From a phage, in sequence record PV806339.1: a DNA stretch of 60,026 bases; one strand, 5' to 3'. The notes beneath the pieces were generated by a model, which was given only the letters and a program-made list of their open reading frames with translations, was not told where the DNA came from and did no database searches. The position numbers and the translations under genes are program-made. Below, in pieces: positions 12,757-32,499 of this stretch (positions within the stretch are counted from its first letter, which is position 1; each line of letters starts with the position of its first letter).

Positions 12757-12998
12757 TTCTCGACTTCCACAATAACCTTCGTGCCACGGTGTCCTTCCTC
12801 ATGTCCGAGGGACACCCGGCCGCCCGGCATTACCCGTTAGGATATTTGTGGTCAGAAACGAAAATCGCGAAGCGCCGGGTAAACGCGGGTTATGTCACCC
12901 AAAGTTTACTGATGCAGTCCTGTATCGGCGCTGTACTCAACGGCAAGAAAGGCGGGAAAGAGTATAAAAAACTAATCAAGGAATTATCTGATGGCTAA
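12295..12998 (+). CDS. tail assembly chaperone G-T fusion made by a -1 frameshift at 12669-12675
   Basis: Conserved G/GT architecture of long-tailed phages. The T part (12675-12998) has no convincing initiation context of its own. Confidence 0.7.
12669..12675 (+). promoter_or_regulatory. -1 programmed frameshift slippery site A_AAA_AAG
   Basis: In the G frame the codons are GTA AAA AAG (V K K). The -1 frame is open from 12663 to 12998 and ends by overlapping the tape-measure start. Confidence 0.75.
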
Positions 12999-15900
12999 CA
13001 GTAAAGACGTCGAGCTACGAATCCGGGCGAGGGACTACAGCCAGAAGCCCCTAAAGGCTGTGACCAGTGCCATCGAGCAGATGGCGAAGGCGCAGGACGA
13101 ACAGCGTAAAGCAGCCGAGCGCGGTGAAGTCTCGACGCGTGATCTGGAAGCCGCATACAAAAAGCTGGAAAGTGCCGGGAACCAACTGCTTAAACTCAAC
13201 TCGCTGATCGAGGTGTTCAAACGGCAGAATCAGGCCATGACGGAGGCGACGGCCAAGACCGAAGGACTCCGCCAGAAACAGGCCGATCTCCAGAAGACCT
13301 ACGATTCCACCGAGAAGGTTACGCAGAAACAGGAACGGGCGCTGGCCCGGGTAACACGTCAGGTTGAAGCCGCAACCCGCGCGGAAGCGAATCAGGCCGA
13401 GCGCGTGTCCCGGGCTACCCGCGACCTCGAACGATACGGGATCGAGACGTCGAAAGTTGGGGCGGCCCAAGCGGGTATCGTCACCAGCGTCGCGCAGGTC
13501 AACCGTGTCCTCGAACGTCAGGACGAAATCATTTCAACGTCTGCCGCTGCGGCCGCACAAGCGAAGGTCATTCGTGGATTGCAGCAGCAGGCTGATCAGG
13601 CGATGGCGACGGCGCGCGGGTACCAAACCCTCGGCCGCGTGGTGCAGCAGGCAACCGGGCAACTCGGGCCGCTTGGCACGCAGATCCAGACTATCGTCAG
13701 CCCGGCAGAAGCGGCGCGCCGCACGCTGTCCGGCCTTGAGAATCAGGTACACGGCGTTACTACCGAACTGGCCCGTAACAGTAAGGAAGTGGAAAACGTC
13801 GCTCAGAAAGTCCGAATGCTCAACGAGGCGAATAAAACCGTCTCGGCGCTGGCGCAGCAAATCGACCTGTACCGCCAGCAGGTGTCAACCCTTCGGAACG
13901 CCCGCACTGAATACCAACAAGCGCGACAAGACGTCATCAAGTTAGCACAGCAGATGCGCACCGCGACAACTGATACGGGCGCTTTAGGTATTCAGATGCA
14001 GGCCGCCCAACAACGGCTTTCCGCAGCCGCGACGGCCATGCGAAACACGGCCACGGCCGCCCGGTCTACCCAAGCCGCGTTACGAGCGGCGCAGGTGGAC
14101 ACGCGTAACCTGTCCGATGCGGAAGCCCGGCTGATCTCCACCAGCCAACAATCGGCCGCAGCGCTTAACACGCTGTCCACCGCGACGAACCGGAACAGCC
14201 AAGCGGCGCGCGACGGCTCGAAGGCGTGGTCACTGTTCCGAGACGAGGGCCGTACCACGCTGTCCTTCCTGCAACGTATTCGCGGTGAAGTGCTGGCGCT
14301 GACGACCACTTACATCGGTTTTCAGGGGGCTATCAATCTGGCGGGAGGCGCGATCGACGCGTACAAGAACCGTCAGCAGGCGATGGTCAAAATTGCGAAC
14401 GTGGTGGGTAACAGCCAAGCGGCCATCAACAAAGAGTGGGAATACATGGTCGGTCTGGCGAATACGCTCGGGATCGACATCACCACCCTGTCACAGTCGT
14501 ACACGAAATTCGCCGTATCCGCGAAGGCGGTCGGCCTGTCATTGCAGGACTCAAAGTTCATCTTCGAAAGCGTAGCGAAAGCGGGCCGCGTCTTCCACCT
14601 GTCACAAGATGACATGGAAGGCGTATTCCGCGCGCTGGAACAGATGTTGTCGAAGGGTCAGGTGTATGCGGAAGAACTGCGCGGCCAATTGGGTGAACGT
14701 CTCCCGGCGGCCTTCGCGCTGTTCGCAAAAGGCATGGACATGACCACCGCCGAACTGATGAAGGCGATGGAAAACGGGGAAGTCACTGGCGAGGCGGTTA
14801 TCAACTTCGCCCGCGAGCAGGCCAAAGCGATTGACGCTCAACTCGCCACGGCGCAGAAAGGTGTCGATGCGATGGAAGCGCGCGCCCGCAACGCCATGAA
14901 CGCGTTTCAACTGGCATTGGCCGACGCAGGCTTTATCGAAGCGTACGTGCAGATGCTTAACAAGATCACCGACTTCCTGAACAGCGAGGATGGTCGGGCG
15001 GCCGCCGTTAAACTCGGCGAGGCGTTCGGCACGTTGGCCGACGCTGTGACGTGGTGCATCGAGAACGTGGACACGCTGATCACCGCGTTAAGCGTTCTGG
15101 CCGGGCTGAAAGTGGTGCAGTTCATCGGCGGCATGATTTCGGGCCTTAAAAACCTGCTGCCGCTGTTCAGCACGCTCGGTAAAATCGGCGATGGCATTAT
15201 CACGATGCTAGAAGGTGTCGCGGCCAGAATGATTGCGGCACAAGGGGCCGTAGGGCTTCTCGGCATCGCGTTGAAAGGGCTGACCCGGTTAATCCCGATT
15301 GTCGGATGGGCGCTGCTGGCGTACGACATCGGTGCCATCATGTACGACCAGTCGCAGACCTTCCGCGAGGCGGTCAACGCGATCATCCGGGACTTCAAGA
15401 ACCTCGGGAATCAACTGGCAGCCGTCGTCGAGTCCATCCCGGCGCTGCTGTACGATCTGGCGGTATCGGTGCTGCGCCCTATTACCACGATGTTCGCCGA
15501 CACCACGCAGGCGATTATTAAGTGGATCGCGGATGTCCTGAAACTGATCCCGGGCGTTGGTCAAGGGCTGTCCGAGTGGGCCATGTCCATTGGCGACGAC
15601 CTGACGAAAGAGCAGCGTGGCTTCCTCGAATCGACTGGCCGCATTTGGGACAACGTCAATAAACAGTGGGTGAAACTGAACGACGAAATGGTCGCGAAGA
15701 ACGCCGATGCGACTGACAAGATTCGCGGGCAGGTCAACCAACTGGCCGCCGACATGGCCGCTATCACGAAGGGCGAAGGCTTCCAGTTCACCCAAGACCC
15801 GGGAACAGGCGTCACGAAGCGCAGCCGCGAGATCGCGGGCCTGACGAAAGAGTTAGGCAAGATGGAAGAGGCGGCCAAGAAGGCGGACGTTGCGTCGCGT

Positions 15901-17286
15901 AAAGCGGAACAGCGGAAAAGCCTGTCCGGACGCCTTGCCATTATCGACGAGGAATTCGCGCCGCAGTACGCCCGCGCTAAGTCGATCGGCGGCTCGGAGG
16001 GTGATGCCCTTACCAAACGTCTCGACGCCGTTGTGGCCGCGCGCAAGAAGGCAGAAACGACCCTCTTCAACTCGCAGCAACGTACGACGGGTGGTATCAA
16101 GAAACAGGAAAACGCATTACAGGCGCTGATCAACAAGTACAACGAGTTGAATGCCGCCGTCGGCGTGAAGGAAGTTAAGATTGACCCGAATGCCACGTTT
16201 GACGACCGTCTGGCCGCTAAACTGGCCGCTGTCAATACGCAGTACGATCAGCTGATCGCCAAGTCGAAGAAACTCGGGACTGGCGGGCAGAATCTGGCCG
16301 GGCAGTTCGAAGACCTTCGCAAACGCAATCTGGAATACGCGACCACGCAGGCCAAACTCGAAGAACTGAAACGCATTGAGGATCAGTTAAACTCGCAGCA
16401 GGAGACGAAGAAAAACCTGCTGGACGAAATCAATGCCAAACGGCAGGCCGGGGTTATCTCCGAAAATGAAGCCGTCGCGCAGACGGTAGCCTTGTATCAG
16501 AACATGAATACGGGCATCGCGTCGTCAGCCGAGCAGCTTGACGCCTTCGCGCAGAAGATTAAAGACACGATGTCGCCGGAAGAATTCAGCCGCATCATGG
16601 CGCAGATTGCATCCGTCAAAGCCGGGCTGGTGGACGTCACAGGCACCTTCACGACGATGGACACGACTGTCGTTCAGGGCGTGCTGGACGGAATGAGCAC
16701 GGCGCTGTCATCCATCGTTGACGAAATGGCGTTGGTCGTGGCCGGGTCGCAAAGCATTGGCGATGCGTTCTCAAACCTCGGCGTGGCCGTGGCACGGTTC
16801 TTCGCGGACTTCTTGCAGAAGATCGCAATGGCAATCTTGCAGCAGATGGCGCTCAACGCACTGGCCTCTATGGGGGGTGGCATCGGTTCGGCGGCCGTTG
16901 CATTAGGCGGCACCGTGGCGAAACACAATGGCGGCACCGTCGGCAGTAAGACAACTGGCGGCACGCAGATGAAGGGCGGCATCAGCCCGGCCATGTTCGC
17001 GAATGCCCCGCGCTTCCACGACGGCGGTCTGCCGGGCTTGCGTTCTGACGAGGTTCCGACCATTCTGCAAAAAGGCGAACAGGTGCTGTCGAAGGATGAC
17101 CCGAACAACGTGCTTAACCAATCACGCGGAGGCGGCCAGACGGCGCAGTCGCCACAAGGTCTTCGCTTCGTGCTGGTGGATGATAGGTCGAAAGTGCCGG
17201 AAGCCATGAACACGCCGGAAGGAGAAAAGGCGGTGATGCAGATTCTTCAACGCAACGTACCGACGTTGAAAAACTTAGTGGGATAA
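12991..17286 (+). CDS. tape measure protein
   Basis: 1431 aa. Ala/Gln/Arg-rich coiled-coil N-terminal half, hydrophobic central segments, position after G/GT. Confidence 0.9.
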   Translation: MANSKDVELRIRARDYSQKPLKAVTSAIEQMAKAQDEQRKAAERGEVSTRDLEAAYKKLESAGNQLLKLNSLIEVFKRQNQAMTEATAKTEGLRQKQADLQKTYDSTEKVTQKQERALARVTRQVEAATRAEANQAERVSRATRDLERYGIETSKVGAAQAGIVTSVAQVNRVLERQDEIISTSAAAAAQAKVIRGLQQQADQAMATARGYQTLGRVVQQATGQLGPLGTQIQTIVSPAEAARRTLSGLENQVHGVTTELARNSKEVENVAQKVRMLNEANKTVSALAQQIDLYRQQVSTLRNARTEYQQARQDVIKLAQQMRTATTDTGALGIQMQAAQQRLSAAATAMRNTATAARSTQAALRAAQVDTRNLSDAEARLISTSQQSAAALNTLSTATNRNSQAARDGSKAWSLFRDEGRTTLSFLQRIRGEVLALTTTYIGFQGAINLAGGAIDAYKNRQQAMVKIANVVGNSQAAINKEWEYMVGLANTLGIDITTLSQSYTKFAVSAKAVGLSLQDSKFIFESVAKAGRVFHLSQDDMEGVFRALEQMLSKGQVYAEELRGQLGERLPAAFALFAKGMDMTTAELMKAMENGEVTGEAVINFAREQAKAIDAQLATAQKGVDAMEARARNAMNAFQLALADAGFIEAYVQMLNKITDFLNSEDGRAAAVKLGEAFGTLADAVTWCIENVDTLITALSVLAGLKVVQFIGGMISGLKNLLPLFSTLGKIGDGIITMLEGVAARMIAAQGAVGLLGIALKGLTRLIPIVGWALLAYDIGAIMYDQSQTFREAVNAIIRDFKNLGNQLAAVVESIPALLYDLAVSVLRPITTMFADTTQAIIKWIADVLKLIPGVGQGLSEWAMSIGDDLTKEQRGFLESTGRIWDNVNKQWVKLNDEMVAKNADATDKIRGQVNQLAADMAAITKGEGFQFTQDPGTGVTKRSREIAGLTKELGKMEEAAKKADVASRKAEQRKSLSGRLAIIDEEFAPQYARAKSIGGSEGDALTKRLDAVVAARKKAETTLFNSQQRTTGGIKKQENALQALINKYNELNAAVGVKEVKIDPNATFDDRLAAKLAAVNTQYDQLIAKSKKLGTGGQNLAGQFEDLRKRNLEYATTQAKLEELKRIEDQLNSQQETKKNLLDEINAKRQAGVISENEAVAQTVALYQNMNTGIASSAEQLDAFAQKIKDTMSPEEFSRIMAQIASVKAGLVDVTGTFTTMDTTVVQGVLDGMSTALSSIVDEMALVVAGSQSIGDAFSNLGVAVARFFADFLQKIAMAILQQMALNALASMGGGIGSAAVALGGTVAKHNGGTVGSKTTGGTQMKGGISPAMFANAPRFHDGGLPGLRSDEVPTILQKGEQVLSKDDPNNVLNQSRGGGQTAQSPQGLRFVLVDDRSKVPEAMNTPEGEKAVMQILQRNVPTLKNLVG

Positions 17287-20050: not shown

Positions 20051-20289
20051 TGAGCAGACACGACGAGCCGCAGGATCAGCCGCGCATCTTTATGCGCCAT
20101 GCCCGGAAACTCGGGTATTGCAAAAACGGGTCGGAGCGCTTGGCCGAGCGCTTCGGAATCACCTTCGAACAATTCCTACGGGAAGGCTACCCGGTAGCGG
20201 AAGCCATGAAGTCCGCAAACCCGCTGCTGCGTAAAGCCGCAGCCGTGGCCCAACAAGAATGGGACGAGGCGCACGCACATGGGAAGTAA
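20050..20289 (+). CDS. hypothetical 79-aa protein inserted between the two parts of the J-like gene
   Basis: TAATG coupling to the upstream ORF and an 11-nt overlap with the downstream ORF. Probably helical; no family recognised. Confidence 0.65.
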   Translation: MSRHDEPQDQPRIFMRHARKLGYCKNGSERLAERFGITFEQFLREGYPVAEAMKSANPLLRKAAAVAQQEWDEAHAHGK

Positions 20290-23200
20290 AGCCAAGAAGA
20301 TTACGGTTGGGTACAAATACTACATGGGCCTGTTTATGGGCCTTTTCCGTGGCCCGGTGAATGAGATTGTCGAGATCCGCGTGGGCGACCGTACCGCGTG
20401 GACAGGCTCAATCACTGGCAACACAACCATCCAGATTAACCGCGAAGACTTGTTCGGCGGCACGAAGGCGGAAGGCGGCATTGATGGCCCGCTAGAACTG
20501 TACATGGGCGCGCCGACGCAGACCGTCAGCCAGAAGTTAAAGAACATGCTCGGTGGCCGCCAGCCGGAATTCCGTGGTGTCGTTACCGCGTATTTCGACG
20601 GCCTGATCTGCGCCATGAACCCATACCCGAAGCAGTGGAAATTCAAGGCCCGCCGCTCTACGGCCGGGTGGACTGGCGGCGTCTGGTATCCGGAAAAATG
20701 TCTGGTCAAGATGCAGGGGTACGACGGTCAGGGCAATCAGCACGAAATCCATGCCATGAACCCTGCGCACATCCTGTATGAGTGCCAGTCGAACTTCGAA
20801 TGGGGCCGTGGCCTGTCACGCTCGCTTATCGACGATACGACGTTCCGCCTTGTGGCCGACACCCTGTTTAACGAGAACTTCGGCCTTTGCATCCGATGGA
20901 ACCGTCAGGACACGCTCGAATCGTTCATGCAGCTTATCCTCGACCACATTGGCGGTGCGATGTACGTCAGCAAAGTGACGGGCAAACTGTCCCTGCGGTT
21001 GATCCGGAAGGACTACGACTTCGACACGCTGCCGATCTTCGACACGGATTCCGGGCTGCTGTCCATTCAGGAAGCGACCAACGCGTCTCCGGCCAATCTG
21101 GTTAACGAAGTGGTCGTGACCTACCACAACCCGATCATGGACGAAGACCAGCAGGTGCGTAGCCACAACCTCGCGCAGATCCAGAATCAGGGCTGTCTGA
21201 ACAGCAACACGATTGAATACCTCGGCATCCCTACCGGGAAACTGGCGATGCAGGTGGCACAGCGTGACTTGCGCGCCGCGTCTACCAACGTCCGCCGTTT
21301 CACCGTGATCTGTGACCGCCGGGCATGGAACGTGCAGCCGGGCGACGTGCTGAAAGTGCGTGACCCGAAACAGCGCGGCCTGACCGAAGTTGTTATCCGC
21401 GTCGGTACCGTTGAAGATGGCACGCTGCCGGACGGCAAGATCAAGATTGTCGCGCTGCAAGACCAGTTCGCCTTCCAGTTAAACACGTTCAACCAAGTCG
21501 AGCCACCATCCGGATACGAGCCTGACCTGACTCCCGCGATTGCCCGCCGTATCGTGTACGAAATGCCGTACGTGGATCTGGTGCAGCAGCTACCGGACGG
21601 CGAACTGAACGCCGTTGGCCCGAACGATGCGTTCATCAACTCGCAGGCCGAGAAGCCGACTGACATGTCCGCCGCGTATGACATGGGTATCATGGCCGAA
21701 GGTGAATCGGGCTTCGACATCCGTGGCAACGGTGACTTCGGCGCGTTCGGATCACTGGCCGCCGACATCGACTACCTGTCAACGCAAATCGTTCTGTCCG
21801 AAATGACCGACATGTGGGACGACGTGCAGCCCGGATTTGTGGCGCGCATCGCCAAGCCTGTTCTTGACGGCCAACGCACGCAGATGGAAATCGCGGAAGA
21901 GTTTGTCCGCATCGACGCCATCAATGGCAACGTGATTACCGTGGCGCGCGGCGTACTTGACACCATCCCATTCCGCCACCAGAAAAGCGAAATGCTTTGG
22001 GTGACGACGTACGACGGCGGTACCGACTGGCAGAAATACGCGGGCAACGAGTCCATCGACATCAAGATTCTGCCGTGGACATTGGGCGGTGGCCGCTTCC
22101 CGATTGAAGATGCGCCGATTGATCATCTGGACATGGACTTCCGCCAGATCCGCCCATACCCGCCGGGCAACGTGCAGCACTATCTCGCTTCGACGTCAAC
22201 GCTGCAACGCTGGTATGTCCCGTCCGCGCTTACCTACACGGCCAACGCCGGGGAAACGCCTGACACGTACACCCTGACTTGGGCGCACCGCGACCGTATC
22301 CTGCAAGCGGATAAGCCTGTGCCGCACACCGACGGCGACATCGGGCCAGAACCGGGTACCACGTACACCATCCGCGTCTACAATCAGGAAGGCACGTTAG
22401 TTCGCACCGAATCCGGCATCAACGGCACGTCGTGGAATTGGCCGTACGCAACCGCAGCGGCTGACATGAATGTCGAAGCCAGTCTGTTCGACCCGGTGCT
22501 CGCGACGCTCCGCCTGACGTCTGTCCGCAGTGGCCGCGAAAGTTGGGAATACTACGAAATGAAGGTCAGCGTTTATAAAAAGCCGCCGCAGTTCGTGTAT
22601 GACGCCAGCCTGATGCAGTTCGCCGCGCAGCCGTACAACGCCGCCAGTGATCCTAACCCGCCAACGCCACCGATGGACGGCCCGTATGTTTCGTCCCTGA
22701 TGCAGTTCGCCGCGCAGCCGGATGGTAGCGGTGATTTCGGCGAAGCAGATAGCATGAGTGGCCCGAACGTGGCGCTGCTGCCGCACCAAGTTACGCAGAC
22801 GTCGTCCATCATTACGCCGCTCGATACGCTGCTGTACGAAACACCGTACATCCAGTTATCCCGCGACGGCCGTGACCTGAACACGTCGAAAGTCAGCGCG
22901 TACGTGGCGCGTTCGTCCGACCGTACCGTCGATTCGTATACCCTGTTCACCAAGCATGAAGCCGATGCGGATTACGCTTCCGCCGGGACTCAGCCGTGGA
23001 CACCGTGGGGCATGACAACCGTCGGCCTCGGCTTCTTCACGGACGAAGTGACGATTGACCCGACGTCGGATAAAGACGGCGTTCCTATCGCGGGCGCGCA
23101 GGTGGGCGATCTTCTGCTTATCGATCAGGAATTGATGTCCATCACCGCCATCAACGGCCGCACGTACAAGATTGGGCGTGGCGTGGCTGACACCATTCCG

Positions 23201-24169
23201 GCGCAGCACTACAGCCGCCGTCCGGTCTGGCTGATCTCCGTGGGCTTCGGCTACTCCGACATGGCATTCGGCGATAACGAAAAGGCGATGGTCATCGTCC
23301 GCCCGGATACCTACGGCACCGACATCCCGCTGAACAAGCTGTACCCGCTCCAGTTGCAGATGCAGTACCGCCCGAAACGTCCATACCCGCCGGGCCTGAT
23401 GATGATTGGCGGCCAACCGTTCTTCAACACCGCGAGCGGACTGGCAGACGATTTCAACCCGTACAACAACCTGAAAGCGAAAGACGTGGCCTGCACGTAC
23501 GCCCACCGCAACCGCGTAACTCAGGCAAACACGGCGCGCGACCATTTCGCCGTCGGTATCAACCCGGAACCGGGCGTGAAGTACCGCGTGCGTATCGGCT
23601 ATGCGTACTGGTCGCAGTCCGGCAGTGGATTCTCGCTGCTGTCTCAGTTCGACACGGAAGACGCGGGCTTCATCATGCGCGCGGCCGACCTTGAACGTTG
23701 GGGCCGTCAGGCGGGCTATGCGCAAGACGCTGGCGGATACTCCACGTTAAACGTGACCGTCAACGCGATTCGTGATGGAATGCTGAACTGGCAGGGATAC
23801 ACGATGACCGTGCGCGTGCCGTCCTTCCCGCTTCCTCCGGGTCAGAAACCGGGCGGTGGCGATGGGCCGTGGAACCCGCCGGGCGGAGGCAATACAGGCG
23901 GTACCACGCCACCTACGGAGCCGCCGGATCGTCCAGACCCGAGCGAGCCGGGTACAACCGACCCATCCGAGCCGACCAAGCCGGACGAACCGGAAGATCC
24001 GCAACCGCCTGTAGACCCGGAAGACCCGGATACTGATCCGCCGACTCCGCCAGACCCGCCGATCGACCCGACCAACGTGCCGGGCTGGTCATTGAGTTGG
24101 GATCACGGTTGGGCGATGACGCTGCCAGATTTCCGATACGTTCCACCAGCAGAAGAGGAACCTGAATAA
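20279..24169 (+). CDS. central tail fibre / host specificity protein (lambda J / GTA g15-like)
   Basis: 1296 aa. The N-terminus KKITVGYKYYMGLFMGLFRGPVNEIVEIRVGDRTAW...LFGG is typical of this family. It carries an ~90-aa Pro/Asp/Glu/Thr-rich C-terminal linker. Confidence 0.85.
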   Translation: MGSKAKKITVGYKYYMGLFMGLFRGPVNEIVEIRVGDRTAWTGSITGNTTIQINREDLFGGTKAEGGIDGPLELYMGAPTQTVSQKLKNMLGGRQPEFRGVVTAYFDGLICAMNPYPKQWKFKARRSTAGWTGGVWYPEKCLVKMQGYDGQGNQHEIHAMNPAHILYECQSNFEWGRGLSRSLIDDTTFRLVADTLFNENFGLCIRWNRQDTLESFMQLILDHIGGAMYVSKVTGKLSLRLIRKDYDFDTLPIFDTDSGLLSIQEATNASPANLVNEVVVTYHNPIMDEDQQVRSHNLAQIQNQGCLNSNTIEYLGIPTGKLAMQVAQRDLRAASTNVRRFTVICDRRAWNVQPGDVLKVRDPKQRGLTEVVIRVGTVEDGTLPDGKIKIVALQDQFAFQLNTFNQVEPPSGYEPDLTPAIARRIVYEMPYVDLVQQLPDGELNAVGPNDAFINSQAEKPTDMSAAYDMGIMAEGESGFDIRGNGDFGAFGSLAADIDYLSTQIVLSEMTDMWDDVQPGFVARIAKPVLDGQRTQMEIAEEFVRIDAINGNVITVARGVLDTIPFRHQKSEMLWVTTYDGGTDWQKYAGNESIDIKILPWTLGGGRFPIEDAPIDHLDMDFRQIRPYPPGNVQHYLASTSTLQRWYVPSALTYTANAGETPDTYTLTWAHRDRILQADKPVPHTDGDIGPEPGTTYTIRVYNQEGTLVRTESGINGTSWNWPYATAAADMNVEASLFDPVLATLRLTSVRSGRESWEYYEMKVSVYKKPPQFVYDASLMQFAAQPYNAASDPNPPTPPMDGPYVSSLMQFAAQPDGSGDFGEADSMSGPNVALLPHQVTQTSSIITPLDTLLYETPYIQLSRDGRDLNTSKVSAYVARSSDRTVDSYTLFTKHEADADYASAGTQPWTPWGMTTVGLGFFTDEVTIDPTSDKDGVPIAGAQVGDLLLIDQELMSITAINGRTYKIGRGVADTIPAQHYSRRPVWLISVGFGYSDMAFGDNEKAMVIVRPDTYGTDIPLNKLYPLQLQMQYRPKRPYPPGLMMIGGQPFFNTASGLADDFNPYNNLKAKDVACTYAHRNRVTQANTARDHFAVGINPEPGVKYRVRIGYAYWSQSGSGFSLLSQFDTEDAGFIMRAADLERWGRQAGYAQDAGGYSTLNVTVNAIRDGMLNWQGYTMTVRVPSFPLPPGQKPGGGDGPWNPPGGGNTGGTTPPTEPPDRPDPSEPGTTDPSEPTKPDEPEDPQPPVDPEDPDTDPPTPPDPPIDPTNVPGWSLSWDHGWAMTLPDFRYVPPAEEEPE
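22609..22720 (+). repeat. 25-nt perfect direct repeat inside the J-like gene
   Basis: cctgatgcagttcgccgcgcagccg occurs at 22609-22633 and again at 22696-22720, encoding SLMQFAAQP twice. Confidence 0.9.
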
Positions 24170-24918: not shown

Positions 24919-25926
24919 ATGGCAAGTTATTTTGATGGATATGAGCAGTTCCGGTCTACGGACAAGTCTAACCCGGGAACCTTTATGCGGCTCGCCGGGT
25001 ACACGGTTCGCGGTGCAATCTCCGCAGGTCTTGGTCGCCTCCAGACGAGCATCGGCCTGTACACACTGAACAGCGCCTACGAGCGCGATTGGACGTGGGG
25101 CGGTGACACCCTTACCATCGGCTTCGCGTGCAAGCAGCAGGCGCGTGGCGCGCTATTTGGGCTAAAGGTCGGTGACGCCACTGGCCGCGATGTTCCGCAT
25201 GTCGTTGTCTACACTGACCCGGTGTCGGCGCTCGTCACCATCCAGACCGGGCCAGACCAGTCGGAAGTCGGGTATGTCACGCCGATCCCGACACGCTGGT
25301 ATTACTATGAAGTCGTGATGAACCGCGCCACGAAGGTTATCGAGGTGTTTGTCAACGGGAAATCGGACGTAGCCTATACACTGCCGGACGTCCTTGCGGC
25401 GTCGGCCGTCGTGCGCATGGTCTTCAACCCGTTCGACATGCTGCCATCGTTCCCGGCCGACGCGGAGTACACGGAAGACACGAAGGTATTCGACGACATG
25501 TACGCGCAGGACGGCGGCCGCTTAGGGGCCATCCAGATCAGCGGACGTCTGCCGGACGGCGACCGCGATACCGAATGGGGCGTGGCCGGGCCTAACCCAA
25601 CGGCCGCACATAACCAGATGGTCGGCCGACTGCCGCCAGACATGGCAAACAAGTACATCTACACTGGCACGAATGACCGTCACGACTCGTTTATCTCGAC
25701 GAACAAACTGCCGGATAACGGGGCCATTCTGGCGCAGGGTCTGATCGCCTTAGTCCGGAAGGCCACGGCCGACCCGGTGTCGATTATCGCGAACATTGAC
25801 AGCCACACTGTTACCCTGTCGAATATCGGCCGTAATTGGGAATATCGTTACGCGCAATTCACCACAAGCGGTTATGATCAGGCCGCCATTGAAGCCGCCG
25901 AATTCGGTGTGCGTTCAGTTCTATAA
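24919..25926 (+). CDS. tail fibre/receptor-binding candidate, paralogue 1 (jelly-roll/LamG-like)
   Basis: 335 aa. Shares N-terminal F-DG-(Y/F)-(D/E), central WYYYEVV..., the (I/V)EV(F/Y)VNG block and C-terminal FG(V/I) with the next two genes. Confidence 0.75.
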   Translation: MASYFDGYEQFRSTDKSNPGTFMRLAGYTVRGAISAGLGRLQTSIGLYTLNSAYERDWTWGGDTLTIGFACKQQARGALFGLKVGDATGRDVPHVVVYTDPVSALVTIQTGPDQSEVGYVTPIPTRWYYYEVVMNRATKVIEVFVNGKSDVAYTLPDVLAASAVVRMVFNPFDMLPSFPADAEYTEDTKVFDDMYAQDGGRLGAIQISGRLPDGDRDTEWGVAGPNPTAAHNQMVGRLPPDMANKYIYTGTNDRHDSFISTNKLPDNGAILAQGLIALVRKATADPVSIIANIDSHTVTLSNIGRNWEYRYAQFTTSGYDQAAIEAAEFGVRSVL

Positions 25927-25936
25927 AGGGGTTACT

Positions 25937-26899
25937 ATGCTGAAATTTATGGACGGTTTTGACCAGCTACGCGGCTGGTCTGACGTTACGGATGGGCTGA
26001 CCAAATGCGGGTACACCGTGTCTGGCACGCCCACGTTAGAAGAAGGACGCGTGGCTACGCAGATGGCGGTATCACTGCCGGACACGGCCAGCCTGAAACG
26101 CGTGTTCACCTCCGGGGCCACGAAAGTCGTGTTTGGCTTTGCCTTCCGGGCCATCGGTCTGCGCCACACCCTGATCACCATCAAAGATGTCGTGACGATT
26201 ACGTGGAGCGAGACGGACGGGAAGATCACGGCCGCTGGCGGTACCGGAACGGCGGTGCTGCTGCTGGACTTGTGGTACTACATCGAAGTGGTTCTGGACA
26301 AGACCACCAGCACGATCGAGGTGTACGTGAACAACGGGCTGGACATCACCGCGCCATCGCCGTCGAGCGCTAACCCGGTCACTAACTATGAAGTCACATG
26401 GGCGGGCGTTGCCACGGCGCAGTACCTTCTCGACGACCTCCAGTTCATCGACAATCAGCCGGGCAAGTATACCGGGCGCATCGGGCCTATCCAGATCACC
26501 AGTCGCTTGCCGATGGTGGACGTGGACAAAGAATGGTCGCCGTCATCCGGCAACGACCACTACCCGCTCGTCTACAATCAGCCGCCCGTCGAGGGGTCGT
26601 ACATCCAGTCGAACACGTCCGGCGCGACCGACACGTTTCTATCAAACACCGTCATCCCTGATACGCAAAACATTCTGGCCGTCGGCATGACCGTGCTGAA
26701 TAAAAAGTCAGACGTGGACAACCGTCAGTTAGGCATGGTCATCGGCCAAAAAGGCGACACGCAAAAAGAAGTTATCGACGCGGCGCTATCCACGACTGAA
26801 AAGTATAGTTATGCTGTGTTCGAGACGAACGCGGCCGGGCAAGACTGGAATGACGAACGACTCAGCGAAGCGCCGTTCGGCGTCATCGTAAGACCATAA
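25937..26899 (+). CDS. tail fibre/receptor-binding candidate, paralogue 2
   Basis: 320 aa. Start at the ATG 25937 with an AAAGGGG SD (the ORF opens at 25796 inside the previous gene). Shares motifs MLKFMDGFDQ, LWYYIEVVLDKTTSTIEVYVNN, YIQSNTSGATD. Confidence 0.75.
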   Translation: MLKFMDGFDQLRGWSDVTDGLTKCGYTVSGTPTLEEGRVATQMAVSLPDTASLKRVFTSGATKVVFGFAFRAIGLRHTLITIKDVVTITWSETDGKITAAGGTGTAVLLLDLWYYIEVVLDKTTSTIEVYVNNGLDITAPSPSSANPVTNYEVTWAGVATAQYLLDDLQFIDNQPGKYTGRIGPIQITSRLPMVDVDKEWSPSSGNDHYPLVYNQPPVEGSYIQSNTSGATDTFLSNTVIPDTQNILAVGMTVLNKKSDVDNRQLGMVIGQKGDTQKEVIDAALSTTEKYSYAVFETNAAGQDWNDERLSEAPFGVIVRP

Positions 26900-26912
26900 G
26901 GAGCATACCGAA

Positions 26913-27932
26913 ATGTTTAAATTCTGTGACGGGTACGACCACTATGCCGAAATCGGCGTGAAGGGTACGGCCCTACAAGGTTATCTGGAAGCCGCCGGGT
27001 ACGTGGTGCGTAATGCCAGCGATACGACGTTTTCCGTTGTCGAGGGCCGCCGGACAGGTGCGCGTGCGCTGAAATTCACCGTGGCCGCCAGTTCATCGGT
27101 CAACGCCTCGCTGTCATGGGGATTCACCACGACGGCCTCGTCAGTCGTCTTCGGATTTGCCATGAAAGCCGGGCTGTCCCGTATGCGTATCGCGCGTATC
27201 GAGAACATCGTGGATATCGAGTGGGACACCACGACCGGGAAAATCCGCGTAGGCGAGCAGTTAGGCGTCAACCCGCTGATCCTGAACGCATGGTACTACT
27301 TCGAAATCGAGATCGATAAGACGGCCAACACCGTCAAGGTCTACGCGAATAACGAATTGCAGTTAACCGTTACGCCATCGAGTGCGCCGACCACCACGTA
27401 CACAATCGTTTGGGGCCAGACGGGTACCGCACCTAATGCGGGCGAACAGACACTGGATGACTTCTACGTGATCGACGGTTCCGGTAGCCGCAACAACGCG
27501 CGCCTGACTCCGGTCGAAGTGACCAGCCGTATGCCGACGGCCGACGTTTCTACGCAGTGGGACGTTGTGAACGCCTCGTCCTCCACGCCGCACTATCAGA
27601 TCGTGTCACAGCTTTCCCCGGGCGGCGAGTCGAAGCCATACCTGCAATCGAACACCGCAGGGGCCACGGATATGTACCGTTCGAACGTGACGCTGCCGAA
27701 CAATAACCAGATCTTCGCCGTATCTGTTATCGCGTACGCCCGTAAAGGCGACCTTGATGATCGTAAACTCGGTCTGGTGGTCAACACGGAAGGCGGTACG
27801 CCGACTGAAATTCAGGTGCCGCTTACCGAGTCGTATAAGTATTATCAGGCATCGTTCGAGCAAGCGCCGGGCGGAAGTGACTGGAACCAGAACAACGTCG
27901 AATCTTTGCAATTCGGCATCATCACGCGATAA
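26913..27932 (+). CDS. tail fibre/receptor-binding candidate, paralogue 3
   Basis: 339 aa. MFKFCDGYDHY, AWYYFEIEIDKTANTVKVYANN, YLQSNTAGATD. Clearly paralogous to 25937-26899. Confidence 0.75.
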   Translation: MFKFCDGYDHYAEIGVKGTALQGYLEAAGYVVRNASDTTFSVVEGRRTGARALKFTVAASSSVNASLSWGFTTTASSVVFGFAMKAGLSRMRIARIENIVDIEWDTTTGKIRVGEQLGVNPLILNAWYYFEIEIDKTANTVKVYANNELQLTVTPSSAPTTTYTIVWGQTGTAPNAGEQTLDDFYVIDGSGSRNNARLTPVEVTSRMPTADVSTQWDVVNASSSTPHYQIVSQLSPGGESKPYLQSNTAGATDMYRSNVTLPNNNQIFAVSVIAYARKGDLDDRKLGLVVNTEGGTPTEIQVPLTESYKYYQASFEQAPGGSDWNQNNVESLQFGIITR

Positions 27933-27946
27933 GGGAGGGACACACT

Positions 27947-29176
27947 ATGCCTGTAGTATGGCACTGCGGTTTTAATGGTTTTATCAACAATACGTCGGGG
28001 CAGGGTCAGTCGAACCTGTTTATCAACACAAACGATACCGGGACGGTGAGCCATGCCCTCTCCGCCGACAATTTAATTAATAACGTTTTTGGTCGTGGCG
28101 GAAACGGCTACCAAAACGGCGGCTTTCTCCCTTTGATCACTTACTACGGACGTAAATGGTCGTCGTCCGGGTCGTACGGGTCGTCTTATGTTTTTGGTCG
28201 TGTTAAGCCGTCTTTCTTTGATAACTCCGTGCCATGTCTAAGCACCGAACAATACCAACCTGCTAACACTTCCGACTGGTGGGGAGGGTGGCAGTTCCGT
28301 ATCGATTTGTGCTGGCCCTCGGCGGAACGCCTGACGACGTCGTGGCGCATGGGCTTCCGTATTGGCCGCGCAACACACCCCACATACAATATTGGTTATC
28401 AAGTCTATATCTGCCCGGCGGGTATTAACGAAGCAAACGGCCAAGACTTGTATCGTATCTCGATCTCTGCGGGTCAGGACGAGAAGTATATGGAGGTGGA
28501 ATGGTTGGCGGACAGCAAGACCCTTAACATCTATCTGAACGACGAACTTGTCTCGACCCGCACCAACTATACTGCCAACGATATGTCGTACGGCCTTATT
28601 TTGATGTGCGAACATTTCGTTGGCACTAACACTAGCTCCACACCGTTCTTCGGTTTTGAACTGCGGGACATGTATGTCCAGAAAATCGTTTCAGATGCAG
28701 ATCAACGCCTCGGGTCTTCGACGAAAGTATATGCGTTCAATCCCGTTAATGACGATGTTGTACAGTTCTCTCGGCCAGACGCATATTCGTCAAACGCCGC
28801 CGTCGCGGTAACGCCGATCGCTCCCGGGGGTATCACCCCGACGCCGTCGCAATCTCCCGCAATTCTCGGGGCGGACGTGGTCGGACAGCAAGACCTGTAT
28901 AACATTGACATTTCCAAAGTCAGCACACGTCTGGCGTCGATTGAAGCGGTCAACGTCCGGACGATGGCCCGAAATCCGTTGCTTGGAAATAGACAATCTG
29001 CCGCGATCGCTAAATCCGGGGCGACCCAAACCCAAAGCGAGAACACATCGACGCTCGAACAAGGCGGCCTGTGGCGTTTCAACACGTTGCAGATGGTGTC
29101 TGACCCGGCGGACGGCGCACGTTGGAACCTTACAAAACTGGCCGGGCTTAAAGTCGGTACCAAATTCGTCGCGTAA
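27947..29176 (+). CDS. tail fibre/receptor-binding candidate, divergent paralogue 4
   Basis: 409 aa. It retains the central ...YMEVEWLADSKTLNIYLNDEL... block and a C-terminal W-N...L..LK(V/F)G pattern. Its N-terminal region is different and Gly/Asn/Ser-rich. Confidence 0.65.
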   Translation: MPVVWHCGFNGFINNTSGQGQSNLFINTNDTGTVSHALSADNLINNVFGRGGNGYQNGGFLPLITYYGRKWSSSGSYGSSYVFGRVKPSFFDNSVPCLSTEQYQPANTSDWWGGWQFRIDLCWPSAERLTTSWRMGFRIGRATHPTYNIGYQVYICPAGINEANGQDLYRISISAGQDEKYMEVEWLADSKTLNIYLNDELVSTRTNYTANDMSYGLILMCEHFVGTNTSSTPFFGFELRDMYVQKIVSDADQRLGSSTKVYAFNPVNDDVVQFSRPDAYSSNAAVAVTPIAPGGITPTPSQSPAILGADVVGQQDLYNIDISKVSTRLASIEAVNVRTMARNPLLGNRQSAAIAKSGATQTQSENTSTLEQGGLWRFNTLQMVSDPADGARWNLTKLAGLKVGTKFVA

Positions 29177-29185
29177 GGGGGCCAT

Positions 29186-31381
29186 GTGGCTGATGAAGAC
29201 GTAGGTATCAGCGCGGCCAAGTTGGTCGGCGAAGCCTTGCAGTGGAATGGCGAGAAGCCCAAACTCACATACCTGTCCCGGTGTGTAGGGGAAGCGTTAG
29301 CCATTTCCGCATTGAACATGGACGCGGCGAAAAACTTCGGGGAGGTTTTGCAGTGGGACGGTAAATTGCCGTCCATCTTCCGCGCCTCCAGACTGGTCGG
29401 CGAAGTGCTGGCGATTCAAAAGATGGAGATCCGCGCATCGTCAATGATTTGCGAAGCGCTGGTCAAAGAGCCGCAATTTATGGCGGCCGAAATGATCTGC
29501 GAGGCTATCGGTCAGGCGGCCACGGAACGGCCACCGCTTTACGCAGATGCGGTGTATGAGTATGTCACGCAGCACGACGTCGTACCGCCTTTGTCGGAAG
29601 TCATTTCTCCGGAAAGTCTGTACACGTTGTGGAATTACGCCATTGTCCAGCGGCCGATCGATGACCCGATTTCCTACAACATCGTGAAGCAGGCGGTGAC
29701 GCTGTCCGTTCTGGCGTCGCCTATCGTGACCATTTCGTACGACAAGGTGAAGACCGCGTGGTCGTATGCTGTGGTGTCCGCGACGCTCGGTGACTTCCCG
29801 CTGCCGGATGAAATGTGGTCGAAGATCAGCACGAAGCAGGTCTGGAATCTGGTATTGCAGTCGATCGACATCCCGTACGTCCCGACGTCTGGTGTGTTCG
29901 TTCGTCATGAATCGACGCTGGTGGTTCAGGCCCATCCGCTGCCGATGTACACGACGCCTGCGTCCGTGAAGTCGAACGCGGTTCTGGCCGCGCAGAAGCG
30001 CCCGGTTGAACGACTCCCGCGCTCAATGACTCGCGTGGCGCAGGGATTATCGCAGGCCGTTACCGCGCTGCCGATCCCGATGCCACGGTCTGACGTGTTC
30101 GCCGCGCAGATGCTGTCACAGGCTGTAATCCCGGCCGACTTCGTTGACCCGACTGTCGGCGTCGAGCACGCGGCCGCAGTGACGTCGTACGCCGTTTGCG
30201 AGTATCAGGTGTCGCTTCCTATCAGTTACACGCGCGCGAAGTCCCTGACGCCGCTGGTGCTGCAATTTAGCGATAACCAACGAGTCATTCCGCTGTCCAC
30301 GATGCGCACCAAACATGTTTCGTCTCAGTTCTTGGTCAAGTCTGACTTGCTCCCGGTGCTGTCCACGATGCGCACCGAACATGTTTCGTCTCAGTTCTTG
30401 GTCAAGTCTGACTTGCTCCCGGTGCTGTCTCGGACGCGCGTTAAACAGGTACGCGGCTATGCAGTGCGGGCGGAAGAGTACACGCCTCCGATTAACCTGC
30501 TGGTGTGGTCGCGCGCTGACGCTGTTCGCATGTCGGTGGTGCAGCAGGCAACGGACTACCCTGACCCGGGAATCCCTACAACGTCGGCCATCGTCAGCGC
30601 GGCCACGGCGTACCACGTCATGAAAGCGCTGGACTACGAAGATCCGAACGACATGTGGGAGGCGAGCAAGGTTCAGATCGTGCCGCAGTTCTTAGAGAAG
30701 GTGGTGAAAGCCCAACCGCTGCGGCTCCCGATCTCGTACGCTCCGCTGGCGCAATTTGTTGAACTGGTGACGCGGTACCAGTACATGCCGCCTCCGGGCG
30801 AAGTCGCCGAGTCCGGTATCCATGTTCGTCAGGTGATGCAGCCAGTGGCGTTCCGCGCGACGTACCCTGACCCGACTGTCCCGGTATCCCACCTGACGGT
30901 CAATCAGGTGCTGGAGCACATCGCGATCCCGGCCGACTATCCGGACGTCCACCTGCCGACGTCGGACGCGATTGTAAATCAGGTATTGGAACACGTTGCG
31001 CAGATTGACGATTTCCCTGATCCCGGTACCATGTTCCGGCCGCTTATTGTCAGCCAGATCATTCAGCAGGCGGCACAGGATGCGTCTTACCCGGATTGGA
31101 GCACACTGCATAAACCGCTTGCGGTTCAGCAGGTAATTCAGCATGTATCAATGACGGCGGAATACCCTGACAAGGACGTCCCGCAATCATTTGCAAAAGT
31201 GTCTCAAGTTTTGCAGCACTATGCCGATAAAGCTAATTACCCAGACAAAGATGCTCCCCAATCCACGCTACGAGTCCGTCAGGTACTTGAGCAGGTAATG
31301 ATGCGCGACAAGTCGATGTACGAAATGCCGCAGCCACCACGGAAACATCGGGTGCAAATCACTTGCCGCTTTGTGTACTGA
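29186..31381 (+). CDS. 731-aa repeat protein, probable tail fibre
   Basis: GTG start with an AAGGGGG SD. Built almost entirely of degenerate ~22-24-aa repeats (e.g. YPD(P/K)xxPxSxxxVxQVL(E/Q)Hxxxxxx). Last structural gene before a strong terminator. Confidence 0.8.
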   Translation: MADEDVGISAAKLVGEALQWNGEKPKLTYLSRCVGEALAISALNMDAAKNFGEVLQWDGKLPSIFRASRLVGEVLAIQKMEIRASSMICEALVKEPQFMAAEMICEAIGQAATERPPLYADAVYEYVTQHDVVPPLSEVISPESLYTLWNYAIVQRPIDDPISYNIVKQAVTLSVLASPIVTISYDKVKTAWSYAVVSATLGDFPLPDEMWSKISTKQVWNLVLQSIDIPYVPTSGVFVRHESTLVVQAHPLPMYTTPASVKSNAVLAAQKRPVERLPRSMTRVAQGLSQAVTALPIPMPRSDVFAAQMLSQAVIPADFVDPTVGVEHAAAVTSYAVCEYQVSLPISYTRAKSLTPLVLQFSDNQRVIPLSTMRTKHVSSQFLVKSDLLPVLSTMRTEHVSSQFLVKSDLLPVLSRTRVKQVRGYAVRAEEYTPPINLLVWSRADAVRMSVVQQATDYPDPGIPTTSAIVSAATAYHVMKALDYEDPNDMWEASKVQIVPQFLEKVVKAQPLRLPISYAPLAQFVELVTRYQYMPPPGEVAESGIHVRQVMQPVAFRATYPDPTVPVSHLTVNQVLEHIAIPADYPDVHLPTSDAIVNQVLEHVAQIDDFPDPGTMFRPLIVSQIIQQAAQDASYPDWSTLHKPLAVQQVIQHVSMTAEYPDKDVPQSFAKVSQVLQHYADKANYPDKDAPQSTLRVRQVLEQVMMRDKSMYEMPQPPRKHRVQITCRFVY
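30293..30424 (+). repeat. 66-bp tandem duplication (2 copies, 1 mismatch) inside the repeat-protein gene
   Basis: Units 30293-30358 and 30359-30424 differ only by aaacat/gaacat. They encode LSTMRT(K/E)HVSSQFLVKSDLLPV twice. Confidence 0.95.
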
Positions 31382-31401: not shown

Positions 31402-31428
31402 TTAGCGGGCTTGTCCCGCTAATTTTTT
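31402..31428 (+). terminator. rho-independent terminator after the structural genes
   Basis: TTAGCGGG-cttgt-CCCGCTAA followed by TTTTTT. Confidence 0.9.
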
Positions 31429-31785: not shown

Positions 31786-32499
31786 ATGGCTAAACAGAAG
31801 CCGCGCGGGATTCGCAATAACAACCCGGGCAACATCGAGTGGGGGTCGCCGTGGCAAGGGCTGATCCCGCGCAGTGAAGCGACGGACAGCCGCTTCGCAC
31901 AGTTCAAAGACCCGGCATCCGGCATCCGCGCCATTGCCGTCACTCTGACCACCTACTACGACAAGCGCAAAGCGAATGACGGTAGCAAAATCGACTCGGT
32001 GCGAGAAGTTATCGAGCGGTGGGCACCCGCCGTTGAGAACAACGTATCGGCCTACGCTAAACAGGTTGCCGCCGTTCTGGCCGTTGACCCGAATAGCGAA
32101 ACGCTGAACCTCCACGACTACGACACCATGCGCGGTCTGGTGGAAGGCATCATCCGCCACGAAAACGGGAACCCGGAAGCGTTCGGCCTGACGTCGTACA
32201 GCAACGCGAATACGTGGTACTCGGACGAAGTGATCGAGGAAGGTCTGCGCCGGGCGGGCATCGTTAAGGCGGCCAAGCCTGTTAACCGTACCACCGTGGC
32301 CGCGACAAGCGTGGCAGGACTCGGCGCGGCGCAACTGGTTGACATGGTACAGCCCGTCAAGGCTGCGATGGACAGCGCCCACGGTGATATTTCTTCCGGT
32401 GATTGGGTACGCATCGCATTCGGCGCGGCCACAATCGCGATTGGCCTGTACATGGGATGGGTCGCGTACCGGAAGCATCGGGCCGGGGCCGCTGCATGA
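31786..32499 (+). CDS. endolysin candidate (RGIRNNNPGNI-motif peptidoglycan hydrolase family) with a C-terminal TMD
   Basis: 237 aa. The N-terminal GIRNNNPGNIEW motif is one I recall from phage muralytic proteins. The C-terminus has WVRIAFGAATIAIGLYMGWVAY followed by RKHR. Confidence 0.6.
   Translation: MAKQKPRGIRNNNPGNIEWGSPWQGLIPRSEATDSRFAQFKDPASGIRAIAVTLTTYYDKRKANDGSKIDSVREVIERWAPAVENNVSAYAKQVAAVLAVDPNSETLNLHDYDTMRGLVEGIIRHENGNPEAFGLTSYSNANTWYSDEVIEEGLRRAGIVKAAKPVNRTTVAATSVAGLGAAQLVDMVQPVKAAMDSAHGDISSGDWVRIAFGAATIAIGLYMGWVAYRKHRAGAAA

Follow-up and report, generated by a model that had tools for sequence, protein, structure and literature searches.

A 60 026-nt stretch of phage DNA (sequence record PV806339.1; 'the window' below means this whole stretch) carries on its plus strand a gene for a 731-amino acid (aa) protein built of short repeats. 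The phage is a flagellotropic Salmonella phage related to Chi, and the gene closes its tail-fibre gene cluster. The protein is the homologue of CHI_36 (gp36), YSD1_35, Siskin_036 and Utah_037, and we use the name gp36 for the family. We found that gp36 consists of ∼30 homologous short units, arranged in several sub-arrays and followed by a conserved 22-residue non-repeat tail, and that the number of units changes by one whole unit at a time among closely related phages. With middling confidence, we interpret gp36 as a modular, elongated part of the adsorption apparatus of Chi-type phages, fixed or registered by its C-terminal tail, variable in its N-terminal and middle parts and changing in length by slippage of single units. 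The repeat is a new, undescribed family within a known kind, the phage fibre-apparatus proteins with a variable number of pseudo-repeats.

Identity of the gene

29186–31381, plus strand: repeat protein gene (homologue of Chi gp36/YSD1_35), 731 aa, GTG start, from the list of open reading frames

The start codon coincides with the annotated start in Chi gp36, Siskin_036 and Utah_037. The gene shares 97–98.5% DNA identity with its counterparts in Chi-like siphophages of Salmonella and Escherichia (Chivirus, Casjensviridae); at the protein level, identity to the Chi, YSD1 and Utah sequences is 88–98%. The ratio of nonsynonymous to synonymous substitution rates (dN/dS) is 0.11–0.16, thus the gene is under purifying selection. 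Within the gene dN is highest in the middle, while the C-terminal array and the tail are the most conserved parts.

Nearly all records label the homologues 'hypothetical protein'; a few carry names that are evidently wrong ('site-specific recombinase', 'putative capsid protein', 'putative endolysin 2'). The window protein belongs to PHROG 7226 (hmmscan E=0, 1295 bits), a family with no function assigned. A scan against Pfam (E≤0.1) matched nothing, and the same was true of NCBIfam; neither the protein nor the family profile matched any PDB sequence, even at E=10. The sequence-only reading of this DNA had been unable to place the repeat in a known family, and the searches left it so. In the literature, the PIN1/PIN2 paper, which mentions YSD1_29 and BH2P, is silent on the gp36 gene (YSD1_35/CHI_36).

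Repeat architecture

29186–29533, plus strand: N-terminal array, residues 1–116, GE(A/V)L-type half-units of 17–20 aa with a 37-aa double period
29534–30637, plus strand: middle arrays, residues ∼117–484, degenerate units of 22–28 aa with a recurrent P-x-S motif; profile–profile E-values 1e-5 to 5e-11
30638–31312, plus strand: C-terminal array, residues 485–709, nine 25-aa units in register; E-values down to 5e-17
31313–31378, plus strand: non-repeat C-terminal tail, residues 710–731, ...MPQPPRKHRVQITCRFVY, the densest cluster of invariant columns in a 23-sequence alignment

Periodicity was assessed by autocorrelation: one copy of the duplicate described below was taken out, and BLOSUM62 scores of residues k positions apart were averaged and set against 500 shuffles. 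The strongest signal was at lag 25 (z=8.9), followed by lags 22 (z=4.2), 50 (z=3.9) and 75 (z=3.5). In a profile–profile self-comparison with a single-copy homologue as master, each segment within residues ∼117–690 matched other segments with E-values from 1e-5 to 5e-17; support for the N-terminal array was weak (E=0.014). Three C-terminal units compared with the whole-family profile matched residues 545–606 (E=4e-14) and 432–486 (E=5e-4). Taken together, the autocorrelation and the profile self-matches indicate that gp36 is periodic almost end to end, as the sequence-only reading had proposed.

The period changes along the protein: it is ∼37 aa in residues 1–100, 22 aa in residues ∼225–475 and 25 aa in residues ∼476–710. 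The unit length given earlier, ∼22–24 aa, does not hold for the C-terminal unit, which is 25 aa long. The GE(A/V)L motifs at the N-terminus and the six clean units at the C-terminus, both noticed in that reading, were found again, the six units occupying residues 560–709 (nt 30863–31312). At least three degenerate 25-aa units precede them, in register from residue 485.

Over 436 distinct 25-aa units of the family the consensus is [YF]PD[PK]xhPxSxhxVxQVh[EQ][QH]VAhxDx. An iterated hidden Markov model (HMM) of this unit stalls when built on the window protein alone and undercounts units in distant homologues, so that the HMM counts given below are lower bounds. The most distant homologues end in a tail equivalent to that of the window protein, e.g. 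...IPTRTDRRRAVVTVSIS.

Gain of single units

30293–30424, plus strand: 66-bp tandem duplication, residues 370–391 and 392–413, from Tandem Repeats Finder and direct comparison

Tandem Repeats Finder reported a repeat at 30292–30429 with a period of 66, 2.1 copies and 98% matches. The two copies, 30293–30358 and 30359–30424, differ by a single base (A30311 versus G30377), which gives K376 in the first and E398 in the second; this is the difference that had been read from the letters alone. The sequence CTGTC opens both copies and the next unit as well; this microhomology at the unit boundaries is supplied by the repeats themselves and would favour slippage or illegitimate recombination. The window allele was not seen in any of the phage records whose repeat region was read, and the exact window protein had no match in a collection of ∼15 billion proteins; the duplication thus appears to be private and recent.

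Nine gp36 genes were aligned at the DNA and protein levels (sal2 and BPS4 were left out). Most near relatives have 709 aa and one copy of the 22-aa unit; the Chi and YSD1 reference proteins are of this length, with all units single-copy. Among phages otherwise 95–99% identical we observed four independent duplications of a whole unit. Event (a) is that of the window, in which LSTMRT(K/E)HVSSQFLVKSDLLPV is doubled. Event (b), shared by Utah and ER3, affects the same region with a different junction, shifted by ∼10 nt: the second copy in Utah/ER3 opens with CTGTCTCGGA, as the following unit does, but the second copy in the window opens with CTGTCCACGA, as the first window copy does. The Utah/ER3 allele also differs from that of the window (DLRPV). 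The span in iEPS5 and ABTNLsp1 matches the Utah-type duplication; two database proteins (P0001 and P0003) have the Utah-type allele and junction, and a third (P0002) has the DLRPV allele in two identical copies. Event (c), in Siskin (locus L001, 12001–14196) and BPS2 (L015, 101–2296), doubles 66 bp, namely the unit immediately before the one doubled in the window, TSYAVCEYQVSLPISYTRAKSL. Event (d), in Salmonella phage KKP 3829 (L003, 301–2541; 746 aa), is an exact duplication of a 37-aa (111-bp) double unit in the N-terminal array. Each of the four events added exactly one structural unit, in frame.

Equal gene lengths had raised the possibility that Siskin, BPS2 and sal2 share the duplication of the window. 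For Siskin and BPS2 this was rejected: both proteins have 731 aa, yet the unit doubled in the window is single-copy in them, and the alignment shows the neighbouring unit doubled. The common length of 731 aa thus hides non-identical events, since the phages double different units.

Insertions and deletions among more divergent homologues again have about the length of one unit, and the N-terminal arrays differ in copy number. The number of C-terminal units in distant homologues ranges from 6 to ∼15; database protein P0102 has 15 units when counted by eye, and the HMM finds at least 12 in P0102 and in P0103. The four duplications, the unit-length indels and this range give good support to the earlier proposal that the length of the protein evolves by gain and loss of repeats, and the comparison of related phages that had been suggested with it shows a repeat number that varies rather than being invariant.

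The tail operon and the probable receptor-recognition cassette

20279–24169, plus strand: gp30 homologue (YSD1_29), a J-like hub protein with a long C-terminal extension; full-length match to PDB 8vjh_A, YSD1 annotation, PMC12264135
24169–24909, plus strand: gp31 homologue, a DUF2793 protein and the first gene of the cassette (Pfam PF10983, E=2e-22)
24919–29176, plus strand: four paralogues with a lectin-like fold, gp32 (24919–25926), gp33 (25937–26899), gp34 (26913–27932) and gp35 (27947–29176)
31402–31428, plus strand: intrinsic terminator-like hairpin and T-run at the end of the tail operon

The genes of the window follow the order tape measure, distal tail protein, hub, J-like protein, DUF2793 protein, four hypothetical genes, gp36, terminator, holin, endolysin and spanins, in agreement with the annotated genomes of Siskin, Chi and YSD1. 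The strong terminator predicted after the gene is indeed present, as a stem-loop at 31402–31422 followed by six T, and a terminator is annotated in the same place in Siskin. The tail operon likewise closes with gp36 in Chi, YSD1, Siskin and pEp_SNUABM_08 as well as in four metagenomic contigs, where the DUF2793 gene and four paralogues precede it and the lysis genes follow.

The proteins gp32, gp33 and gp34 are mutual paralogues by phmmer; gp35 is tied to them more weakly, via PHROG 2448 alone. None of gp30–gp35 has a periodicity comparable to that of gp36. An AlphaFold2 (AF2) model of gp34 has a predicted local distance difference test score (pLDDT) of 94.3 and two beta-sandwich domains. Foldseek matched it to ConA-like lectin jelly-rolls (a sialidase carbohydrate-binding module, the botulinum toxin HCN domain, legume lectins and ERGIC-53) with E ∼1e-6; in a viral structure library the fold is found in other phages too, including a 'virion structural protein' of Achromobacter phage AchV4. 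Conservation of gp34 is far higher than that of gp36: among the clusters listed (120) its identity is at least 48% and its length 336–348 aa, as compared with 27–45% identity for gp36 in the same phages. We found nothing published on gp32–gp35.

In distant relatives the order is conserved as well: the J-like hub and the DUF2793 gene are followed by orthologues of gp32, gp33, gp34 and gp35, position by position, then by the repeat protein and the lysis genes. It is therefore a conserved six-gene cassette, not one gene, that accompanies the J-like hub: a DUF2793 protein, four lectin-fold paralogues and the repeat protein. A separate observation concerns the hub itself, which in three distant relatives (L010, 1–3023; L011, 1–2782; L013, 1–3051) is split into two genes, an N-terminal hub part with Phage-tail_3 and a separate protein of ∼800 aa homologous to Chi gp30.

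Several published results bear on the cassette. Liquid chromatography–tandem mass spectrometry (LC-MS/MS) of AchV4 virions detected a DUF2793-like protein and two lectin-fold proteins of the gp34 type (PMC7996906). The gene for a DUF2793 protein always follows the central fibre gene directly, and in the pilus-specific phages DMS3 and JBD26 these proteins have been proposed as the pilus binder (bioRxiv 10.1101/150227). In RcGTA, gene transfer depends on the DUF2793 protein Rcc00171, which competes for a site on the cell surface (PMC5026251). Given the lectin folds, the presence of such proteins in AchV4 virions and the roles reported or proposed for DUF2793 proteins, the cassette that ends with gp36 is best read as a receptor-recognition module.

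Family and hosts

An exhaustive profile search of 1.84 billion representative proteins yielded no more than 89 gp36-family clusters, mostly of 600–770 aa. The distant members that were read have short N-terminal units of the xxVxGxxxG type, middle units that contain P-x-S and are Q-rich, and 25-aa [FY]PDP units, followed by a tail of the type hP..R..RR..V.[IV].I[SYW]. In one member (P0094, 1536 aa; L007, 10001–14611) F5/8 type C (discoidin) and glycine-rich domains are fused upstream of the repeats. Its gene is preceded by a gp31-like gene and four gp32–34-like paralogues on a metagenomic contig of 229 kb, which may derive from a large phage or from a chromosome and also has a topoisomerase IV-like gene.

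Phages that match gp36 infect, among others, Salmonella, Escherichia, Proteus, Providencia, Serratia, Hafnia, Cronobacter, Erwinia and Klebsiella aerogenes, which are motile as far as is known. Yonseivirus Seifer, a phage of the same family that infects the non-motile Klebsiella pneumoniae, is without gp32–36; behind the gene for its short J-like protein lie two other fibre/spike genes. This situation matches the 'tail-fibre cassette substitution' described for the PIN1/PIN2 Klebsiella phages.

Predicted fold

The AF2 monomer of gp36, computed with the 23-sequence alignment, was unusable (mean pLDDT 29.9, no residue above 50). Such a failure would fit a protein that folds only as an oligomer or together with a partner. 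The hydrophobic consensus positions 13, 16, 17, 20 and 21 have the helix-like spacing i, i+3, i+4, i+7, i+8, and the hydrophobic moment of the unit consensus is higher at 80–120 than at 160–180 degrees, a weak signal; the low-confidence model places helices at these positions, and in several distant units a proline falls inside the putative helix stretch. The pattern of the unit thus leans, weakly, to helix over strand.

Role of gp36 and alternative explanations

The evidence that gp36 acts in the adsorption apparatus is circumstantial, but its strands agree: they are the conserved position of gp36 in the cassette, its absence from a relative that is not flagellotropic and the domain fusion in P0094. 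From this context a fibre or filament-binding role is plausible. As an elongated component of the apparatus, gp36 would act as a fibre segment, shaft or spacer, and its folding would need self-association or a partner. The conserved C-terminal tail would fix or register the protein, with the variable N-terminal and middle parts facing outward. Each unit gained or lost could then shift the length of gp36, or the number of its contact sites, by a fixed step, and the phage would thereby have an easy means of adjusting its reach or its grip on the flagellar filament.

A number of observations weigh against this interpretation. The experimentally identified fibre protein of the Chi type is not gp36. 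According to PMC12264135, citing Dunstan 2019, immunogold labelling and neutralisation placed YSD1_29 (= Chi gp30) in the long fibre; YSD1_29 is the 1296-aa J-like protein, which corresponds to the window gene at 20279–24169, while gp36 is YSD1_35, and phmmer finds no similarity between gp30 and gp36. None of gp31–36 is present in the deposited Chi structure or in the PDB, where gp30 is (8vjh). A virion LC-MS/MS list of 12 proteins for pEp_SNUABM_08 names a J-like and a DUF2793 protein and none of gp31–36 (PMC8310351). No other proteome was accessible for a phage that carries a gp36 homologue, and the survey is shallow; the negative is weak because the lectin-fold proteins, which are virion components in AchV4, were also missed. 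AchV4 virions, in turn, carry lectin-fold proteins apparently without a repeat protein (there is no Achromobacter phage among the tblastn matches listed), which means that the lectin-fold proteins are not strictly dependent on it. The correlation between gp36 and host motility is confounded by phylogeny, and flagellotropism has been shown experimentally for only a few of the cassette-bearing phages. Finally, the failure of AF2 could simply stem from the shallow alignment.

The absences from the pEp_SNUABM_08 proteome and from the solved Chi structure would fit a gp36 that does not remain in the virion. It could be an assembly factor, a large scaffold, template or chaperone that during morphogenesis organises the fibre or the lectin-fold paralogues or sets their length and is then discarded; this is the main alternative, which we consider rather unlikely. 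Tail-fibre assembly proteins are typically the last in a fibre operon, as gp36 is the last in the tail operon; modular repeats and a predicted inability to fold alone would suit a template; and gp36 diverges in sequence much faster than gp34. Still, at 650–930 aa the proteins are several times the size of known fibre chaperones and have no Pfam match to them, while the fusion of F5/8 type C and glycine-rich domains in P0094 speaks for a protein exposed towards the receptor and not for a cytoplasmic helper. The proteomic argument also loses force because gp31–35 are missing from the same list though their homologues are virion proteins in AchV4.

The other explanations turn on the shape of the unit. 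If the P-x-S motif and the helix-spaced hydrophobic positions that follow it form amphipathic helices joined by proline-rich linkers, gp36 might grip a filament in the manner of nebulin or apolipoproteins, lying along the flagellar filament or the phage fibre with one unit per subunit, so that the number of units sets valency. The moment at 80–120 degrees, the helices of the low-confidence model and the tolerance of unit duplications at several places agree with this. In addition, the nut-and-bolt model fits the fibre into grooves between flagellin rows (PMC7911016), and the outer flagellin domains have been implicated in recognition by Chi (PMC10399903), while the middle of gp36 is its most variable part. 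We nonetheless judge filament gripping to be unlikely: the moment signal is weak, prolines interrupt the putative helix in several distant units, and the C-terminal array is the best conserved, though variation would be expected there if it touched variable flagellin surfaces. A bolder version, which we regard as quite unlikely, makes gp36 a thread or ruler whose sub-arrays recruit or align the lectin-fold paralogues, or flagellin subunits in the filament groove, with unit number setting fibre length or valency. To our knowledge such a nebulin-like principle has not been described for any phage adsorption device. A self-contained solenoid, a beta-helix or a horseshoe of the leucine-rich repeat (LRR) type with 22–28 aa per turn, serving as an enzyme or a tailspike-like adhesin, seems very unlikely. 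Units of 22–28 aa do match typical rungs, the conserved aromatic, Asp and Gln positions could stack or form ladders, and solenoids tolerate insertion of units; but AF2 usually models solenoids well and here returned a pLDDT of 29.9, no LRR, beta-helix or pectate-lyase family of Pfam matches, the PDB has no sequence that matches the profile even at E=10, and an LxxLxLxxN-type signature is absent from the unit consensus.

Comparison with known systems

Chi gp36/YSD1_35 has the same position and architecture as the window protein, which has one extra 22-aa unit. Chi gp30/YSD1_29 shares with gp36 the operon and the adsorption apparatus, and both the long extension of the J-like protein and gp36 are elaborations specific to the lineage, missing in Seifer; it is nevertheless a different gene, with neither sequence similarity to gp36 nor its periodicity. 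One could also take gp36 for YSD1_29 itself on the strength of the 'truncated YSD1_29' reported in phages 35 and 37 (PMC12264135). We rejected this identification: the YSD1 record makes YSD1_29 the J-like gene, and in phage 37 the reading frames of many tail genes are broken. Another gene, CHI_31 (the DUF2793 gene), has been named as a putative fibre gene, untested there (PMC10399903).

The hubs of DMS3 and JBD26 are homologous to gp30 (∼36% identity), and the DUF2793 gene directly follows the hub as in the window; in these phages and in RcGTA it is the 3′ end of the tail operon that determines recognition of a filament. No Pseudomonas phage with a gp36 homologue was found among the tblastn matches.

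The fibre shaft of adenovirus and the reovirus sigma-1 protein consist of degenerate short pseudo-repeats whose number differs among relatives and sets the length of the fibre. The likeness of these triple beta-spirals to gp36 lies in the short degenerate repeats, the conserved hydrophobic positions and the Pro/Gly turns. Their repeats are, however, ∼15–16 aa long, as against 22, 25 and 37 aa in gp36, and we saw no similarity of sequence or profile. Also, the viral fibres end in a globular head; in gp36 only the 22-aa tail follows the repeats, which leaves it without such a head, and the gp36 unit leans to helix and not to strand.

Where tape-measure proteins contain tandem repeats, each repeat gained or lost in frame changes a length proportionally, an analogy for the idea of gp36 as a ruler. 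The tape measure of the window is a separate gene (12991–17286); gp36 lies ∼12 kb downstream, after the tip genes, and not between the tail chaperone and distal tail protein genes. Assembly proteins of the lambda Tfa and T4 gp38 type resemble gp36 in position only, as the last gene of a fibre block. They have ∼150–260 aa and belong to recognised Pfam families, whereas gp36 in the window has 731 aa, is built of repeats and matches none.

Annotation of related records

In Salmonella phage PMBT21 (L016, 101–2230) gp36 is annotated from an internal start at 233; the frame and the conserved N-terminus begin at 101. In Salmonella phage 37 (NC_029045, L005), and also in phage 35, the J-like gene, gp36 and many other tail genes are fragmented and bear implausible product names (site-specific recombinase, capsid protein), which looks like frameshift sequencing error and not biology. 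Four records labelled as Enterococcus, Listeria or Staphylococcus phages (OR844949, OR848973, OR850098 and GU169904) contain fragments near-identical to Chi-like tail genes and probably reflect contaminated or mislabelled entries.

For the endolysin homologue downstream of gp36 (31786–32499, 237 aa), the matching PHROG families bear the labels tape measure, tail injection transglycosylase and head protein. Besides, or in place of, being a conventional endolysin, this protein may be a lysin associated with the virion.

Significance

Cryo-electron microscopy of Chi has reportedly left the fibre (roughly 200 nm) unresolved, and the gp36 cassette bears on how this fibre is built and how it holds on to a spinning flagellum. 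The literature disagrees even on the fibre gene, which is putatively CHI_31 in PMC10399903 and YSD1_29, on the experiments cited, in PMC12264135. The largest member of the cassette is an unstudied repeat protein, the unit number of which is polymorphic among otherwise near-identical isolates. Should the idea of gp36 as a thread or ruler be true, slippage would provide fast and reversible retuning of the grip on different flagella.

Natural length variants already exist as isolates: 709 aa in Chi and YSD1, 731 aa in three kinds (the Utah type, the Siskin type and the window) and 746 aa in KKP 3829. They are ready material for relating unit number to fibre length, adsorption and host range, the last of which matters for the use of Chi-like phages against Salmonella.

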